DNA of 64,000 nucleotides from Vulcanimicrobiota bacterium (GTDB lineage: Bacteria; Vulcanimicrobiota; Xenobia; Xenobiales; JADMJV01): contig JBFWNU010000013.1 of the NCBI GenBank assembly GCA_050250895.1, positions 30,462-94,461 on the forward strand. The letters are read 5' to 3'. The translations under genes and the position numbers were made by a program. Below the pieces are notes generated by a model that was not told the origin of the DNA, made no database searches, and was given only the letters and a program-made list of their open reading frames with translations. Shown in pieces: positions 18,700-31,132 of the stretch (positions are counted from its first letter, which is position 1; each line of letters opens with the position of its first letter).

Positions 18700-19900
18700 C
18701 CGGTTGCCCGCCGGGGCCAGGCTCGCCGCCCGGCCGCGGCGGTCGCGAGGAACTTGCCGGCTCTTCCAGCTGGAAGTACGCGAGTGGCCAGCGGGTTGGG
18801 GCAGCGCCACGGCTCGGCTGGTCGCCGCGGGCGGCGGCACGCGAGGCTCGGCTGGCGCACCGCCCGGCCCCGGCCCTCGTGAGGAACTAGCCGGTTCTTC
18901 CAGCTGGAAGTACGCGAGTGGCCCAGCGAGTCGGGGCAGCGCCAGGGCTCGGCTGGTCGCCGCGGGCGGCGGCACGCGAGGCTCGGCTGGCGCACCGCCC
19001 GGCCGCGGCCCTCGTGAGGAACTAGCCGGTTCTTCCAGCTGGAAGTACGCGAGTGGCCCAGCGGGTTGGGGCAGCGCCACGGCTCGGCTGGTCGCCGCGG
19101 GCGGCGGCACGCGAGGCTCGGCTGGCGCACCGCCCGGCCGCGGCCCTCGTGAGGAACTAGCCGGTTCTTCCAGCTGGAAGTACGCGAGTGGCCCAGCGGG
19201 GTCGGGCAGCGCCAGGGCTCGGCTGGTCGCCGCGGGCGGCGGCACGCGAGGCTCGGCTGGCGCACCGCCCGGCCGGGGCCCTCGTGAGGAACTAGCCGGT
19301 TCTTCCAGCTGGAAGTACGCGAGTGGCCCAGTAGGTTGGGGCAGCGCCAGCGCTCGGCTGGTCGCCGCGGGCGGCGGCACGCGAGGCTCGGCTGGCGCAC
19401 CGCCCGGCCGCGGCGGTCGCGAGGAACTAGCCGGTTCTTCCAGCTGGAAGTACGCGAGTGGCCCAGCGGGGTCGGGCAGCGCCAGGGCTCGGCTGGTCGC
19501 CGCGGGCGGCGGCACGCGAGGCTCGGCTGGCGCACCGCCCGGCCGGGGCCAACTTGGCTCGCCGCCGGGGCTCGGCTGGTCGCCGCGGCCCGGCCCGCCG
19601 GGGCCGAACTGGCTCGCCGCGCCCCCGGCCACTCGGCAGGACACACTGCCGAATCACGGTCGCCGCCGGGGCTCGGCTGGTCGCCGCGGCCCGGCCCGAA
19701 CGCTTGCACGCTCGGTTGTGCGCCGCACAGCCCGGTTTGCTCAGTGTGCGGCGCAAGTGTGCGCCGCACAGCCTGGTTTGCTGAGTGTGCGGCGCACACC
19801 CTGGGCCCCGGCCGCTAGCCCGGGCTCGGCAGCCACACACTGGGCCGAATTCGGCGGACCCCGCTGCCGAATCGCGGACGTCGGCCGGGGCTCGGCTGGT
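18700..19900. repeat. Tandem array of six ~135-bp GC-rich units plus degenerate tail
   Basis: Palindrome CTTCCAGCTGGAAG starts at 18763, 18897, 19032, 19167, 19302, 19437 (period 134-135). Confidence 0.9.
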
Positions 19901-19914
19901 TCGGAGCGTCCCAC

Positions 19915-20364
19915 CTAGTGCTCAGGAAGATTCTCCAAGTCGGCTAGGTCCTTATGGCGACCAGACGCCCGCTTGTTGGCTCGCAGGTCCTCAAGACCGA
20001 GAAAGGCGATCGGGTGGCCCTCAATGTAGGCGACTCGTCTGCGTGCATAGCAGTCGGCGAAGTTCACGCCGTCGATGTAAGTGGTGACTTCTAGCCTGGT
20101 CGGCGGCACGCCGATTCTGATGATCCCGCGCTCTCGAAGAAACAGATCGGGCGTGACTCCCTCACGGAACCCGAACTCATTGAACACCTGGACCATCTTG
20201 TGGGCCGTACCGGGAGATCTAGCAATCCAGACGTCGATGTCCCCGGTCGCTCTGGGATAGCCGTGATAGCCCACCGCATATCCACCTATGACAAGATATT
20301 CCACCTCATGGGCGTTGAGCAGTTTCAAGAACTCGAGAAAGGCCTTGGGAAACGAGGTCGCCAT
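19915..20364 (-). CDS. Nucleotidyltransferase family protein (putative TA toxin)
   Basis: YLVIGGYAVGYHGYPRATGDIDVW and NKRASGRHKDLADLE motifs of Pol-beta-like NTases. Confidence 0.85.
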   Translation of the reverse strand: MATSFPKAFLEFLKLLNAHEVEYLVIGGYAVGYHGYPRATGDIDVWIARSPGTAHKMVQVFNEFGFREGVTPDLFLRERGIIRIGVPPTRLEVTTYIDGVNFADCYARRRVAYIEGHPIAFLGLEDLRANKRASGRHKDLADLENLPEH

Positions 20365-20494
20365 AGTTTCGAACCCTGAGAGTCTCCATGATTTCCAGGC
20401 GCTGGAGCGGCGTGAGGGACCAAAAATAGAGACGATCCTCCTGGTCCGCCTGCTCAAAGCTTTCGATGACTTGAAACCCCTCGTGACCTTCCAT
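20306..20494 (-). CDS. Small protein upstream of the NTase (putative antitoxin)
   Basis: 62 aa, SFEQADQEDRLYFWSLTPLQRLEI; overlaps the NTase start in two-gene TA-like arrangement. Confidence 0.65.
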   Translation of the reverse strand: MEGHEGFQVIESFEQADQEDRLYFWSLTPLQRLEIMETLRVRNYGDLVSQGLSRVLETAQRP

Positions 20495-20564
20495 AGCTTA
20501 GAAAGTTCGCTCGGGCTTCTCCGTGACCCTGCCCGCTTGGCTCGTCGCGCCACCAAGGCAGCGA

Positions 20565-21900
20565 CGGTCGTGAGGAACTAGCCGGCTCTTCCAGTTGGAA
20601 GTACGCGAGTGGCCCGACCGAACACTTGTCCGCCATCGCCCGGCGGGTGTGCGCCGCACAAGCGGGTTTGGCCATTGTACGGCGCAAGTGTGCGCCGCAC
20701 AGCGCGGTTTGCTCAGTGTACGGCGCACAATCTGGGCCTCGACCACTGGCCCCGGCTGCATTCGGCGGCACACCCGCCGAATTCGGCGTACCACGCTGCC
20801 AAATCGCGGTCGCCCGCCCAGTCACGACTGGCTCGCCGTGGCCAGGTTGCCCGCGGTCGCTCACCGAGGCTCGGCCGGCCGCGGCGGTCGCGAGACCGGT
20901 TCTTCCAGCTGGAAGCACGCGAGTGGCCCGACCGAACACTTGTCCGCCATCGCCCGGCGGGTGTGCGCCGCACAAGCGGGTTTGGCCATTGTACGGCGCA
21001 AGTGTGCGCCGCACAGCGCGGTTTGCTCAGTGTACGGCGCACAATCTGGGCCTCGACCACTGGCCCCGGCTGCACTCGGCGGCACACCCTGCCGAATTCG
21101 GCGTACCACGCTGCCGAATCGCGGTCGCCCGCCCAGTCACGACTGGCTCACCGTGGCCAGGTTGCCCGCGGTCGCTCACCGAGGCTCGGCCGGCCGCGGC
21201 GGTCGCGAGACCGGTTCTTCCAGCTGGAAGTATGCGAGTGGCCCGACCGAACACTTGTCCGCCATCGCCCGGCGGGTGTGCGCCGCACAAGCGGGTTTGG
21301 CCATTGTACGGCGCAAGTGTGCGCCGCACAGCGCGGTCTGCTCAGTGTACGGCGCACAATCTGGGCCTCGACCACTGCCCCGGCTGCATTCGGCGGCACA
21401 CCCTGCCGAATTCGGCGTACCACGCTGCCGAATCGCGGTCGCCCGTCCAGTCATGACTGGCTCGCCGTGGCCAGGTTGCCCGCGGTCGCTCACCGAGGCT
21501 CGGCCGGCCGCGGCGGTCGCGAGACCGGTTCTTCCAGCTGGAAGCACGCGAGTGGCCCGACCGAACACTTGTCCGCCATCGCCCGGCGGGTGTGCGCCGC
21601 ACAAGCGGGTTTGGCCATTGTACGGCGCAAGTGTGCGCCGCACAGCCCGGTTTGCTCAGTGTACGGCGCACAATCTGGGCCTCGACCACTGGCCCCGGCT
21701 GCATTCGGCGGCACACCCTGCCAAATCGCGGTCGCCGCCGGGGGCTCGGCTGGTCACCGCGGGCCGGCCGAGCACTTCCTCGCTGTCCCCGGCCGGGGTC
21801 AACTTGGCTCGCCACCCGACCGCGGCCCTCGCGAGGAACTAGCCGGTTCTTCCAGCTGGAAGTACGCGAGTGGCCCAGCGGGTTGGGCAGCGCTAGTCCG
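20565..21900. repeat. Tandem array of ~315-bp units sharing modules with the 135-bp array
   Basis: CTTCCAG(C/T)TGGAAG at 20588, 20902, 21217, 21531, 21849; GTGTGCGCCGCACA-type inverted repeats in each full unit. Confidence 0.9.
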
Positions 21901-22002
21901 GCAGCCCCTCCTCGCCGGCCCCCCGGTCATTCGACAGCACACGCTGCCGAATCGCAATCGCCCGCCGCCCGCTCGCCCGGAGACGGTCCGTCAAAAACCT
22001 GC

Positions 22003-22031
22003 TTGACAAATATTACCTTTCGTGTTAGCCT
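22003..22031 (+). promoter_or_regulatory. Sigma70-type promoter of the leader/tRNA transcript
   Basis: TTGACA (22003-22008), 17-nt spacer, TG-n-TAGCCT (22023-22031). Confidence 0.75.
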
Positions 22032-22055
22032 GGGTCACGAAAGGTTCCTCCAAAG

Positions 22056-22133
22056 ATGATGTTCGCTCGGTCCTATATTCACTCGCACCTACTCGGGGCC
22101 TCGCGCTCCGAGACGGCAGAGCCGGTCGTCTAA
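22056..22133 (+). CDS. Putative leader peptide MMFARSYIHSHLLGASRSETAEPVV
   Basis: 25-codon ORF after a GAAAGG RBS, between promoter and terminator. Confidence 0.6.
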   Translation: MMFARSYIHSHLLGASRSETAEPVV

Positions 22134-22189
22134 GCGACCGCCGAGGGTAGCCAGCCAAGCACCCGCTCTGCCCGGGTGCTTTTTCTTTT
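22115..22189 (+). terminator. Attenuator-like terminator/antiterminator before the tRNAs
   Basis: Terminator AAGCACCCG-N7-CGGGTGCTT+TTTCTTTT (22157-22189); leader segment GGCAGAGCCGGT (22115-22126) is 11/12 complementary to ACCCGCTCTGCC (22161-22172). Confidence 0.7.
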
Positions 22190-22267
22190 GGCCACGTAGC
22201 CCAATTGGCAAGAGGCGCGAGTTTCAGAAGCTCGAGGTTGCTGGTTCGAGTCCAGCCGTGGTCACCA
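22190..22267 (+). tRNA. tRNA-Leu(CAG) with atypical short variable loop
   Basis: GGCCACG/CGTGGTC acceptor, CGAGT-TTCAGAA-GCTCG anticodon arm, GCTGG-TTCGAGT-CCAGC T arm, A73, encoded CCA. Confidence 0.8.
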
Positions 22268-22268
22268 T

Positions 22269-22354
22269 GGGAGTTCGCCGAAGTTGGAGAGTCGGAGGCG
22301 GCTGTAACCCGTCGCGTATATCGCCAGGGGGTTCAAATCCCTCAGCTCCCACCA
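22269..22354 (+). tRNA. tRNA-Tyr(GTA)
   Basis: GGCGG-CTGTAAC-CCGTC anticodon arm, long variable arm, TTCAAAT T loop, encoded CCA; C at position 8. Confidence 0.88.
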
Positions 22355-22359
22355 AACCT

Positions 22360-22446
22360 GGACAGTTGGCCGAGTGGTAAGGCGCCGGTCTTGAAAACCG
22401 GTGAGGGCGCAAGCCTGCGTGGGTTCGAATCCTACACTGTCCGCCA
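22360..22446 (+). tRNA. tRNA-Ser(TGA)
   Basis: GGACAGT/ACTGTCC acceptor, CCGGT-CTTGAAA-ACCGG anticodon arm, long variable arm, G73, encoded CCA. Confidence 0.93.
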
Positions 22447-22461
22447 AATTTGCCCGAGGCG

Positions 22462-23739
22462 CTACCAACGCCTGAAGTTCAGGATGTCAGCGGTGCTCGC
22501 TCCGCCGGGGGCATCGGCCAGGGCCTGATCGTAGTGGACGGAAGAAGAGGCCGCCATGATGATCTGGTCTCCCACCACCGAGCCATAAAGATCGCCACCC
22601 ACCATGGTCACATTGGTGGTGGGGCCGTAGAAGGCGAAAAACGCCTGGGTGCCGCCAGCAATGATGACCCCGCCAGGGGGACTGTTCTGGACCTGCATTT
22701 GCAACAGCCCCGGGTTGCCCGAAGTGTTGACCACGGCGTCCTGGGCCAGGGTGACTCCGCTGCGGATCTTGACCGTGGTTGCGGTGGTGGCCGACGGCTC
22801 TAGACTGACGGTCGAGCCGGCGGCGCTCACGTCGAGGGTCTCGAAGAAGTAGGTCTGACCCTGGCGAAGTTTGAGATCCCAGCCGCTGACCACCACATCT
22901 CCGTAGACTCCCGGCAGAAGATAGCCGCTGGCGTCAAATTGCGGGCCGGGCGGGCCCGAACCCACTGCGGAGGCGGCGGCCGTGTTGGTACCCTCCATAT
23001 CCACGGGAGGCAACGGCTGCGGCTGAGGCATGTATTGCAAGCTCGAGTAAGAGAGGAAAGGAGTTCCCACCACGGCCGTGGGTGGCGCGCCAGGCGGAAC
23101 CAGCACATTGCCCGTCGCCACCAGCGGCGAAAGCGGGTCGAGTTGCGAGGTGGCATCCATGACCACCGAGGCGGGGCTGGTCGAATTGACGCCAACATGA
23201 GCCTGGCCGGCTCCGATGACCCGTGAGGTGGCGTAGGAGCCGACCGACGAATCCCAGGTGTCGGTCGTGCAGTTGGCCGCCATCACCAGCCGATTGGCCG
23301 CAAAAATGGCGTTGGGATAGTTGCTCGAGGTCAGCTTGACCACGACGCCAGCGTGGCGGTCGGGGCCGTCTTTACTTCGGCCCGTCGAGAGAATGTAGAA
23401 GGTGTCGGTGGGTAGAGCGTTGGTCCAGTTGGGGGGAGTGGCCCCGGGACCGTAGACATCCACGCTATAGGTGGCCTCTACGCTGCTGCCATCGACGGTG
23501 GCCATGGCCTGGTTGGTGAGATAGGGCACGGTGGTGGCCGCTACCGTGCCGTTGGCCACATCGACAATGGTCGCGCGGGCGCCGGCGTCAGCCGCATAGA
23601 GCGAAATGGCCGACTTCTGGTCGGCATAGACCACCCGGAGGTTGTCGGAGCCCATGGTGGCCATGCCGGCGGCTATCAGCGCGAGCAGAGCCAACACCAT
23701 CAAGACCACGATAATCGCAATGCCGCGTCGGTTTCTCAT
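22462..23739 (-). CDS. PilX-like N-terminal pilin protein with C-terminal beta-helix-like domain
   Basis: MRNRRG-IAIIVVLMVLALL prepilin-like start, AADAG and STGRS PilX-type motifs, YGP..LYGSVVG..VHYDQAL tail. Confidence 0.75.
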   Translation of the reverse strand: MRNRRGIAIIVVLMVLALLALIAAGMATMGSDNLRVVYADQKSAISLYAADAGARATIVDVANGTVAATTVPYLTNQAMATVDGSSVEATYSVDVYGPGATPPNWTNALPTDTFYILSTGRSKDGPDRHAGVVVKLTSSNYPNAIFAANRLVMAANCTTDTWDSSVGSYATSRVIGAGQAHVGVNSTSPASVVMDATSQLDPLSPLVATGNVLVPPGAPPTAVVGTPFLSYSSLQYMPQPQPLPPVDMEGTNTAAASAVGSGPPGPQFDASGYLLPGVYGDVVVSGWDLKLRQGQTYFFETLDVSAAGSTVSLEPSATTATTVKIRSGVTLAQDAVVNTSGNPGLLQMQVQNSPPGGVIIAGGTQAFFAFYGPTTNVTMVGGDLYGSVVGDQIIMAASSSVHYDQALADAPGGASTADILNFRRW

Positions 23740-24356
23740 CAGTTCACGAACCTCACGATGTTCTGGAGAGTGATAGTGGTCGTCTTGTCGGAAGCGGTGT
23801 CGGTCTGACAGGTCAGTCGAATCAAAACGGCCGCGCCGGCTTCGGCGGTGAAGCTCAACCCGGTCACGTGGCTCCCTAGACTGCTGGCCCCGGGCAGGGC
23901 TTGAAAATAGGGGGCCGTTCCCGGAGGAGCCGGTGGCGTGGCTCCGACCGGCACGACTGTCGGGGTGCCCAGCGCCTCCTCCACCCGCATCAGCCGCCGC
24001 CCGGCCGCGTCGTGGTAGTAACAGACCCACTTACGCCACTCGAGGTCGCCGGCCGGGTCGTGAGTGGGCTGGCCCGCCACCGTCTGGGGTCGCTCGGCCG
24101 ACAGGAAGTAAACGTGAGGGAAGGGCGCGTTAGAGTAGCTGACGCTGTTGGTGCTGGCGTTCGCCAGCTCGTCACTGAGCTTGCGCAAGCCGACCACGGT
24201 CTCTTGCTGCACCGTCTGATAGGCCTCGCCCAGGCGGAAGTAACGCATGCCACTGTGCATCAGCAAATAGATCGAGCCCAGCAGCAAGGAAAGCAGCAGC
24301 GAGTAGACACTCAACTCGGCCAGCGAGAAACCACGGTTGGACCTAGAAACGAACAA
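23739..24356 (-). CDS. PilW/PulJ-like prepilin
   Basis: RG-FSLAEL class III signal; TTG start after GGAGGG. Confidence 0.75.
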   Translation of the reverse strand: MFVSRSNRGFSLAELSVYSLLLSLLLGSIYLLMHSGMRYFRLGEAYQTVQQETVVGLRKLSDELANASTNSVSYSNAPFPHVYFLSAERPQTVAGQPTHDPAGDLEWRKWVCYYHDAAGRRLMRVEEALGTPTVVPVGATPPAPPGTAPYFQALPGASSLGSHVTGLSFTAEAGAAVLIRLTCQTDTASDKTTTITLQNIVRFVN

Positions 24357-24750
24357 CCATGCCCTCCAATCGAACCTCGCGATGGCGGTCAGATTCATCC
24401 CAGCTGACCACCACCAGCACACCTTTGCGCTCGTTGGCCACGAACTCTTCGGTCTTGACCTCGAGCTGGAACTGGGTGTCGCTGGTGACCCCGTTGACGG
24501 TACTGGTCATGACGGGCATGGGCACGGGCGCGGCGTCGACCACGCTGCCATAGGGCAGCAACAGCTGGCGCTCAAGTTCCTGGCGGGCCAGGTTGGTGGC
24601 CGTGGCCATGTTCTTGGCCGTGACCGTCGAGCGCTGGCTGGTGGGAAAGAGTCCGAAGACGAGCAGGATGGCGACAGCCACCAGGCCGAGTCCGAAGACC
24701 GCCTCGAGCAACAGGCTCATCCCTCTTCTAGTGGTGGGTCGGACTCTCAC
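24343..24750 (-). CDS. PilV/PulI-like prepilin
   Basis: RRG-MSLLLEAVFGLGLVAVAILL N-terminus, ATNLARQELE, VVVSW. Confidence 0.75.
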   Translation of the reverse strand: MRVRPTTRRGMSLLLEAVFGLGLVAVAILLVFGLFPTSQRSTVTAKNMATATNLARQELERQLLLPYGSVVDAAPVPMPVMTSTVNGVTSDTQFQLEVKTEEFVANERKGVLVVVSWDESDRHREVRLEGMVVRF

Positions 24751-30386: not shown

Positions 30387-31132
30387 GCATGGATACGGTC
30401 CTGATGCTACATAGCGGTGGCCTGACTGGACGCCAATGGCGCCGGGTCGCGTCGTTTCTCGAGGGCTATCGACTGTTGACTCCCGACTTTTTGGGCTGCG
30501 GGCAAAACCCGCCCTGGCCCGCTGAGCAAGAGTTTCATTTCGAGCTGGATCTGGCCGCCCTCGAGCCTTTGCTTGACCGGCCGCTTCACCTGGTGGGCCA
30601 TTCTTACGGCGGCTTTCTGGCTCTACAGCTAGCTCGCCGCCATCCCGAACTGGGGCTGAGTCTGAGCCTGTATGATCCGGTGGCATTCGGGGTCTTGCAC
30701 AGCACGGCCGACCCCGAAGGTCTGGCCGATCTCGAGCGGGTGGCCAGCCAACCTCTTTTCGGCGACCTCGAGCGGGGTGGCGGCCCCGAGTGGCTGGAGC
30801 TGTTCGTCGACTACTGGAATGGTCCGGGCGGCTGGCAAGCCATGGCCGAGCCAGCCCGCCAGGCCTTTCTCGAGGTGGGCCGCAAGGTATTCTTCGAGGT
30901 GCGTTCCCTGTCGGCCGATCGCACCGGACTGGCCGATTATGCCAACCTGACCATGCCGGTGTTGCTCATGACGGGCGAGCAGACCCCTGCTTCGGCGCGG
31001 CGGGTGTGCGCCTTGCTGGCCGATTCTCTGCCCCGCGCTCGCCATCTGGTCATCGAGGGCGCCGGCCACATGGGCCCCATCACCCACGCCGAGGCGGTGG
31101 GCCGGGCCATCGCCAGTCAGCTGAGCGGATAG
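30383..31132 (+). CDS. Alpha/beta hydrolase
   Basis: GHSYGG nucleophile elbow, GAGHMGP catalytic His. Confidence 0.9.
   Translation: MSMDTVLMLHSGGLTGRQWRRVASFLEGYRLLTPDFLGCGQNPPWPAEQEFHFELDLAALEPLLDRPLHLVGHSYGGFLALQLARRHPELGLSLSLYDPVAFGVLHSTADPEGLADLERVASQPLFGDLERGGGPEWLELFVDYWNGPGGWQAMAEPARQAFLEVGRKVFFEVRSLSADRTGLADYANLTMPVLLMTGEQTPASARRVCALLADSLPRARHLVIEGAGHMGPITHAEAVGRAIASQLSG

Follow-up and report, generated by a model that had tools for sequence, protein, structure and literature searches.

A spare tRNA-Leu/Tyr/Ser cluster of a Vulcanimicrobiota bacterium lies behind a terminator and a short open reading frame that may act as a ribosome-read attenuator

Why should a set of tRNA genes begin directly behind an intrinsic transcription terminator? 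This work addresses that question for a cluster of three genes, for tRNA-Leu, tRNA-Tyr, and tRNA-Ser, in a stretch of 64,000 nucleotides (nt) from a Vulcanimicrobiota bacterium (positions 30,462 to 94,461 of contig JBFWNU010000013.1, assembly GCA_050250895.1; hereafter the window). Between the promoter and the first tRNA of this cluster lie a short open reading frame (ORF) and a terminator, and a sequence-only reading of the window had taken this arrangement for attenuation, in which a ribosome reaching the stop codon of the ORF permits termination and an early stall switches on back-up tRNAs. Here, we describe the sequence elements of the locus and their rarity, the computed switch between two folds, the duplication of these tRNAs elsewhere in the genome, and the type of promoter that precedes them. 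We regard the observation itself as sound and as more than chance. Ribosome-mediated transcription attenuation of a spare tRNA operon appears to be the best single reading of it, and we hold this reading tentatively, at somewhat less than an even chance; the interpretation is plausible and draws on one genome and on computed folds.

For the type of promoter used by tRNA genes in this genome, the motif was defined as TTGACA with at most one mismatch, a spacer of 16 to 18 nt, and TAnnnT, within 250 nt upstream of a tRNA cluster. This motif is present upstream of 28 of the 45 tRNA clusters in the genome, compared with 26 of 4,000 random 250-mers. The promoter that the sequence-only reading had described ahead of the leader is present, and the organism-specific motif backs it. 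A generic promoter scan returned 0 promoter-like sites at the leader, having missed this one because its second hexamer matches TATAAT at only 3 of 6 positions. In 24 of the 27 other clusters carrying the motif, the −10 box lies 8 to 39 nt from the tRNA; in the remaining three, the distance is at least 44 nt, with a maximum of 73 nt. At the window cluster, the −10 box ends 158 nt before the first tRNA. Given a promoter of the usual tRNA type and a gap of this length, the leader of ∼152 nt therefore looks like an insertion between promoter and tRNAs. Transcription would start near 22037-22038. As a separate observation, the housekeeping tRNA promoters (the 27 clusters outside the window) share the consensus TTGACn-N17-(TG)cTAnnAT, and their placement implies that pre-tRNA 5′ leaders are normally only a few nucleotides long.

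The terminator that had been claimed is present and is a good one, and the first tRNA does begin directly after its T-run (TTTTTCTTTT, 22180-22189). Its hairpin ends 8 nt upstream of tRNA-Leu, which leaves no room for a second promoter. The element would terminate transcription when it is allowed to form. Whether it forms was assessed by folding the leader RNA (22038-22189), as the sequence-only reading had suggested. The terminator is absent from the minimum-free-energy (MFE) structure (−57.0 kcal/mol), and its enforced formation yields −54.2 kcal/mol, a cost of 2.8 kcal/mol. The competing fold contains both of the alternative hairpins that had been proposed, at 22092-22112 and 22123-22140, and the reported complementarity of 22115-22126 to 22161-22172 holds at 11 of 12 positions. 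Its critical strand is GGCAGAGC, whose partner (22165-22172) comprises the last base of the 5′ arm of the terminator and its entire loop (Table 1).

The predicted suppression of the terminator is robust to the boundaries chosen for the RNA. In naked leader RNA, the terminator probability is 0.03 to 0.10 (0.10 for 22038-22189), and it stays at or below 0.15 for RNA 5′ ends from 22016 to 22113 at 25 to 37°C, with GGCAGAGC out-competing the terminator throughout. For RNAs starting at 22123 or later, from which 22113-22122 has been removed, it rises to at least 0.996. Folding of successive transcript prefixes indicated that the 5′ arm and loop of the terminator are already sequestered when the transcript reaches 22172, before the 3′ arm is synthesized. 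To gauge how readily such suppression arises, the terminator was held fixed while the upstream 119 nt were subjected to 400 dinucleotide shuffles. Only 4.5% of the shuffles matched the native suppression by probability and 2.5% by energy difference, and the median shuffle gave a terminator probability of 0.997. Similarly, 206 terminator-like sites were picked genome-wide by a simple in-house rule and folded with their native upstream sequence, and 6 of these, the leader included, had a probability of 0.10 or less.

The second element that would be required of an attenuator is a reading frame placed so that a ribosome can choose between the folds. The 25-amino-acid leader ORF reported by the sequence-only reading is present, and an ATG-initiated ORF of at least 15 codons with its stop at 22110-22145 occurs in 3.5% of 3,000 shuffles (8.5% when GTG and TTG starts are allowed). 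We modeled the effect of translation with a ribosome-mask scan, in which 30 nt (−15 to +14 around the A site, a general footprint value) were masked at each codon in turn. The terminator probability was at most 0.11 with the ribosome at codons 1 to 13, rose across codons 14 to 16, and was at least 0.96 at codons 17 to 26, including the stop. In this model, therefore, full translation leads to termination, and either no translation or an early stall leads to read-through. These mask and folding calculations agree with the geometry originally proposed. The locus thus contains an intrinsic terminator between promoter and tRNAs, a mutually exclusive anti-terminator, and, under the mask model, an ORF positioned to decide between them.

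Table 1. Features of the tRNA-Leu/Tyr/Ser locus (positions are those of the window)
Feature	Position	Strand	Description
Sigma-70-type promoter	22003-22031	+	TTGACA 22003-22008, 17-nt spacer, extended −10 TGT-TAGCCT 22023-22031
Perfect 10-bp inverted repeat	22016-22046		ACCTTTCGTG-N11-CACGAAAGGT; covers −10 box and inferred start site
Inferred 5′ leader of tRNA transcript	22038-22189	+	∼152 nt; from promoter position and tRNA start
Leader ORF (putative)	22056-22133	+	ATG start, 25 codons plus TAA; peptide MMFARSYIHSHLLGASRSETAEPVV
GCACCT	22085-22090	+	Pairs with terminator 3′ arm 22174-22179 in the predicted read-through fold (MFE structure)
8-bp local hairpin	22092-22112	+	CTCGGGGC/GCTCCGAG; inside leader ORF; in MFE fold
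Critical anti-terminator strand (predicted)	22115-22122	+	GGCAGAGC; codons 20-23 of ORF; pairs with 22165-22172
7-bp hairpin	22123-22140	+	Stop codon TAA (22131-22133) in loop; in MFE fold
Second anti-terminator helix (predicted)	22145-22164	+	GGGT.GC (22145-22151) pairs with GC.ACCC (22159-22164), sequestering terminator 5′ arm
Intrinsic terminator (predicted)	22157-22189	+	Stem-loop 22157-22181 plus T-tract; 9-bp stem, 6 G-C, 7-nt loop, −13.9 kcal/mol
tRNA-Leu(CAG)	22190-22267	+	ARAGORN; 78 nt, CCA encoded, short variable arm, Leu-type D-loop, A73, A37; 56.9 bits
tRNA-Tyr(GTA)	22269-22354	+	86 nt, long variable arm, C8 G9 instead of usual U8; weak score
tRNA-Ser(TGA)	22360-22446	+	87 nt; 63.7 bits

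In the mechanism that we favor, an accessory operon of short-arm tRNA-Leu(CAG), tRNA-Tyr, and tRNA-Ser(UGA) would be driven by a tRNA promoter of the usual type and gated by an attenuator that the ribosome reads. RNA polymerase would initiate near 22038. A ribosome occupying the last ten codons of the ORF, or standing at its stop codon, would cover both GGCAGAGC and the 22145-22151 strand of the second helix; the terminator would then fold, transcription would end in the T-tract, and the tRNAs would be off. With no ribosome on the leader, or with one held at codons 1 to 13, GGCAGAGC would pair with the terminator loop and GCACCT with its 3′ arm, blocking the terminator, and the three tRNAs would be transcribed and then released by RNase P. 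A circuit of this kind would report on the general capacity for translation rather than on the supply of one amino acid. Its trigger would be a failure to load ribosomes on the leader or an early stall, for which cleavage of tRNAs by a toxin or a phage defense system, antibiotics, and starvation are conceivable causes. That the locus is in this specific sense a sensor of translation capacity, releasing phage-type spare tRNAs that include a short-arm tRNA-Leu with A37, is possible, and we place this fuller claim on the doubtful side.

The products of the operon fit the description of spares. The tRNA-Leu/Tyr/Ser cluster was found as the sequence-only reading had it, with one correction: the "Leu" tRNA lacks a long variable arm. 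Its A73 and Leu-like D-loop suggest Leu identity under the identity rules as we understand them. All three tRNAs fold as cloverleaves. A whole-genome ARAGORN run gave 64 tRNA calls and, in reply to the question of whether housekeeping copies exist, found second genes for Leu(CAG) (87 nt), Tyr(GTA) (87 nt), and Ser(TGA) (90 nt), so that the window copies are not the sole isoacceptors and, as redundant second copies, could serve as back-ups. Two of the three housekeeping counterparts have promoters 11 to 13 nt from the gene, and the window tRNAs diverge from their housekeeping copies over the full length. No near-identical donor was found among 240 loci, the best identities being 81% for Leu, 78% for Tyr, and 75% for Ser.

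The anticodon loop of the accessory tRNA-Leu(CAG) is of separate interest. This tRNA carries A37 (within 22222-22228), and its housekeeping copy (G000:C1:876191-876277) carries G37, the site of m1G modification. A37 also occurs in the two CUN-reading short tRNA-Leu genes of the single congener (G001), and G37 in its UAA-reading one.

Several observations weigh against attenuation, and they concern the ORF, the fold, the tRNAs, and the absence of relatives. The ORF is preceded by neither GGAG nor GAGG, only by AAGG 11 nt before the ATG. For comparison, Shine-Dalgarno use in this genome is modest: GGAG or GAGG precedes the first ATG in 25% of 3,283 long ORFs, against a background of 11%. Translation of the leader ORF is putative. 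The codon counts given in the sequence-only reading are correct (4 Ser, 2 Leu, and 1 Tyr); however, Ser, Leu, and Tyr together make up 7 of 24 leader codons, which is not significant (P = 0.19; P = 0.047 for Ser alone), and the ORF contains no tandem runs of regulatory codons. The two Leu codons are CTA and CTC, neither being CTG, the codon of anticodon CAG, and by standard wobble rules the downstream tRNAs would read just three of the seven codons for Ser, Leu, and Tyr (TAT and two TCG). The leader codons therefore barely match these tRNAs, so that nothing points to a sensing of those particular tRNAs, and the leader is better explained as a general sensor of translation. The rarest codons in the ORF are CTA at position 12, which makes up 4% of Leu codons, and GCA at position 21, with 3% of Ala codons; ATT at codon 8 is also rare. 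No known stalling-peptide motif was identified in the leader peptide.

With regard to the fold, the leader as a whole is no more than ordinarily stable (z = −1.27), all folding values are equilibrium predictions that ignore kinetics, and the statistical thresholds were set after the locus had been seen. The five other low-probability sites in the genome-wide terminator survey are a mixed bag rather than a regulon, comprising a match to L10_leader, one terminator at the end of a gene and one in tandem, a site within an ORF, and a possible leader. The L10_leader match (G000:C1:111910-112045) scores 35.6 bits at E = 0.0039, below its gathering threshold of 44, and holds a terminator-like hairpin that is suppressed by its native upstream sequence (probability, 0.00); it would fit a real attenuator. 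Among the tRNAs, the window tRNA-Tyr scores 31.1 bits against an Rfam cut-off of 29, compared with 57.1 bits for its housekeeping copy, and has C8 where we take U8 to be near universal. This tRNA may be decaying or structurally unusual, and a score barely above the cut-off would fit a decaying cluster.

The last of these points concerns relatives, in which neither conservation nor covariation of the leader was found. A search of 40 genomes of the order for leader homologues gave only chance-level matches of 20 to 48 nt (E ≥ 0.0026), and no homologue was found in 41 relatives or by blastn at the related cluster of the congener. Metagenome pattern scans with the tRNA-Leu and tRNA-Ser stretches likewise gave 0 matches. 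The congener does have a related cluster of five genes at a different locus (C33 1351-1760, minus strand), consisting of short Leu-TAA, short Leu-GAG, Ser-TGA, short Leu-CAG, and Gly-GCC. It lies behind a 65-amino-acid ORF and a hairpin that is predicted to be stable (probability, 0.95 to 1.0) and has a poor T-tract. An analogous switch was considered for this cluster and rejected, as neither a competing fold nor a promoter motif within 600 nt was found. The cluster is flanked on one side by a gene that looks FKBP-like from its translation, together with the 65-amino-acid ORF, and on the other by a 250-amino-acid ORF that looks TsaA/TrmO-like. On balance, the interpretation first offered is supported in part, by the geometry, the computed switch, and the existence of housekeeping copies of the tRNAs.

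The explanation that survives best beside attenuation is constitutive read-through, in which the ORF is untranslated, the terminator is permanently neutralized by the fold, the leader is trimmed by RNase P, and any control is exerted by a repressor acting on a palindrome at the promoter. It accounts well for the prediction that naked RNA reads through (terminator probability, 0.03 to 0.10) and for the missing strong Shine-Dalgarno sequence. The palindrome is the inverted repeat of Table 1, with perfect 10-bp arms set 11 bp apart; it stretches over the −10 box and the presumed start of transcription and is a possible repressor operator. A genome search allowing at most 2 mismatches per half-site gave 11 loose matches and a perfect copy only at 22016-22046; across 40 genomes of the order, 3 loose matches were found compared with 7 for a reversed control pattern, and no regulon emerged. 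The palindrome is thus not found elsewhere in the genome or order beyond chance, and no regulator gene was recognized near the tRNA cluster with Pfam and NCBIfam. Read-through would further leave unexplained why a terminator with a full T-tract has been retained and why the ORF ends exactly on the anti-terminator, as happens in 3.5% of shuffles. We consider this explanation unlikely, if a serious one.

A precedent for such control exists in Anabaena sp. PCC 7120, whose supernumerary tRNA array (the trn operon) is, according to PMC8421152, silent and induced by translational stress. As described in PMC10272220 and PMC8421152, the array is repressed by TrcR, a ribbon-helix-helix protein, on direct 9-nt repeats at the −10 box and start, which is to say that the one inducible tRNA array discussed here has operator repeats at the position of our palindrome. 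The main text of PMC8421152 contains none of the words attenuat-, terminator, or leader. The TrcR motif, in the form given in PMC10272220, is absent from 22000-22050, where the unrelated inverted repeat stands instead. Both systems consist of spare tRNA genes of a horizontally spread type, redundant with housekeeping isoacceptors, both have been or are here proposed as a stress reserve, and both carry a repeat element over the −10 box and start site. They differ in size, with 26 genes there and three here, and in their control, by a repressor there and by a terminator switch plus an inverted repeat here. Because the repeat occupies the position of the TrcR operator, a repressor could act at the window cluster either alone or on top of the attenuator.

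A more deflationary explanation holds that promoter, ORF, and terminator belong together as a small gene of their own, encoding a small RNA (sRNA) or a 25-amino-acid peptide, and that the tRNAs are a decaying relic of a mobile array living on leak-through, with the fold and the position of the ORF being due to chance. The leader is indeed unique to this genome, its fold z-score is ordinary, and the tRNA-Tyr is weak (31.1 bits, C8); moreover, the surrounding DNA has been rearranged and is rich in repeats, with tandem arrays of 135 bp ×6 and 314 bp ×3.6 just upstream. Terminator-like hairpins before tRNA genes also have precedents. In a scan within 40 nt, such a hairpin was found 4 to 30 nt before the first tRNA in 10 of 442 clusters from other genomes and viral contigs; in 9 of the 10, the terminator probability was 1.00, and in the remaining one it was 0.54. 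A looser scan found hairpins at 6 of 101 short-Leu clusters and at 2 of the 45 clusters of this genome, the window cluster included. The promoter, on the other hand, matches local tRNA genes in type and strength, the tRNA-Leu and tRNA-Ser have good scores and cloverleaf folds, and over 101 aligned bases the tRNA-Ser shares 95% identity with its copy in the congener. Finally, terminator suppression (∼3 to 4.5%) and ORF placement (3.5%) are jointly hard to obtain by chance. We therefore rate this explanation as distinctly unlikely. With regard to the hairpins themselves, stable ones end 4 to 14 nt before the first tRNA at loci L048, L088, L123, L138, L151, L185, L187, L188, and L240, and in the Saprospiraceae cases the T-rich tail might also serve as part of a promoter.

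That the terminator is conditional and read by a protein, an sRNA, or a tRNA binding at 22115-22151, which would free the terminator or stabilize the anti-terminator, is improbable: the mutually exclusive folds would support it equally and the ORF is only putatively translated, but no Rfam family matches the leader, no UGGN motif for pairing with a tRNA 3′ end and no repeated protein-binding motif were seen in it, and its lack of homologues in the order means that no conservation marks a ligand pocket. The Rfam scan underlying this statement covered 20000-24000 at E ≤ 1 and returned only tRNAs and a weak YrlA overlap; a Y-RNA was rejected on this basis (22.2 bits against a gathering threshold of 69), the match being read as T-arm likeness. 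A T-box riboswitch was likewise rejected, with no Rfam match at E ≤ 1 and no UGGN bulge sequence in the leader. A T-box resembles this locus in that its leader can form either a terminator or an anti-terminator and is linked to tRNA biology; T-box leaders are about twice as long as the window leader, and the genes under their control are synthetase and amino-acid genes, not tRNA genes.

Returning to ribosome-mediated attenuation, its closest parallels are the leaders of the trp, his, leu, phe, and thr operons. Like these amino-acid attenuators, the window locus has a promoter-proximal short ORF, a terminator directly before the genes, and an exclusive anti-terminator, with the position of the ribosome deciding between them, here by computation. 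It differs in that tRNAs rather than biosynthetic enzymes would be regulated, in the lack of a run of regulatory codons, and in the lack of conservation beyond one genome. An untranslated trp leader terminates, whereas the untranslated window leader is predicted to read through. The locus also resembles the antibiotic-responsive leader-peptide attenuators of resistance genes, in which slowed or stalled translation of the leader opens an anti-terminator; there, too, a stall-induced anti-terminator, as proposed here, switches on genes that relieve a problem of translation. The differences are that the output here is tRNA and not a resistance protein and that no known stalling motif was identified.

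To our knowledge, tRNA genes are usually seen as controlled at the promoter only, via growth rate and stringent control. A ribosome-read terminator switch would make translation itself the signal that calls up reserve tRNAs. In the literature searched, which was covered in part, no report of leader-peptide attenuation of tRNA genes was found; if the attenuation reading is true, this locus would be the first known leader-peptide attenuator over tRNA genes and would represent a second, independent route to an inducible reserve tRNA set, besides the cyanobacterial TrcR repressor. It would bear on the role of supernumerary mobile-type tRNAs, for which a stress reserve, counter-defense against tRNA nucleases, and codon supply have been suggested in print, and on how such genes get wired into host regulation. 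As the locus is small (∼450 bp), it is directly testable with reporters.

The accessory tRNA-Leu belongs to a family with a short variable arm that is characteristic of tRNA arrays in phages and mobile elements. The family was defined by a Leu anticodon, a length of 74 to 79 nt, and the D-arm GTAGCCCAAYTGGCA(N)GAGGCG, and the window tRNA-Leu shares all three. In species-representative genomes, the D-arm motif matches at least 120 stretches. For the first 80 of these genome loci, 73 of 81 motif matches fall in tRNA genes of 74 to 78 nt with Leu anticodons, the other 8 falling in no called tRNA. Among 120 genome loci, which come from Planctomycetota, Cyanobacteria, Actinomycetota, Acidobacteriota, Bacteroidota, and others, 193 of 200 tRNA-Leu calls are at most 79 nt long; 37 loci have at least 10 tRNA genes, and 33, mostly from Actinomycetota, have a single short tRNA-Leu. 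At least 120 viral stretches match as well, and in 120 viral loci, short tRNA-Leu genes account for 110 of 123 matches, with 72 of the 120 loci carrying at least five tRNAs. The short tRNA-Leu genes cover all five Leu anticodons and often lie within arrays of 10 to 34 tRNA genes. Judged by these sequence matches, the family is a coherent one that extends over many bacterial phyla and viral contigs. No description of it was found in the literature searched, which was covered in part.

According to PMC10264068 and PMC12803027, tRNA arrays of phages and plasmids have been proposed as counter-defense against tRNA-cleaving nucleases. The window cluster resembles these arrays in its short-arm tRNA-Leu and in copies that are unlike the housekeeping ones, including at position 37 of tRNA-Leu. 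It differs in lying in an ordinary chromosomal neighborhood, where no phage or plasmid gene was recognized within ∼10 kb of the cluster with Pfam and NCBIfam, and no tRNA-nuclease partner was identified for it. The long tRNA arrays (L-arrays) are similar in that they, too, hold supernumerary, divergent tRNAs of types common in mobile and viral arrays; with three genes, the window cluster falls short of the tens of tRNA genes by which such arrays are defined.

The genome measures 9.5 Mb in 17 contigs, and the G+C content around the tRNA cluster is ∼62%. By ARAGORN, the three genes at 22190-22446 are the only tRNAs of the window. Downstream and convergent on the cluster are two minus-strand ORFs (22462-24422) with pseudopilin-type N termini, matching PilX_N and DUF7305 and, weakly, N_methyl and GspK; the nearer of the two ends 16 nt past tRNA-Ser. 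Upstream lie two non-coding tandem arrays with a G+C content of 70 to 75%, at 18726-19550 (unit of 135 bp, ×6.1) and 20582-21726 (unit of 314 bp, ×3.6), with a weak DUF6036-like ORF (19915-20556, minus strand) between them. Long ORFs over these arrays lack a codon-position G+C signal. The 135-bp unit is local; pieces of the 314-bp unit turn up again in 33 distinct 5-kb bins across the genome. Both arrays share a common core with the palindrome CTTCCAGCTGGAAG, a further copy of which is present at 21805-21887, ∼120 nt upstream of the promoter.

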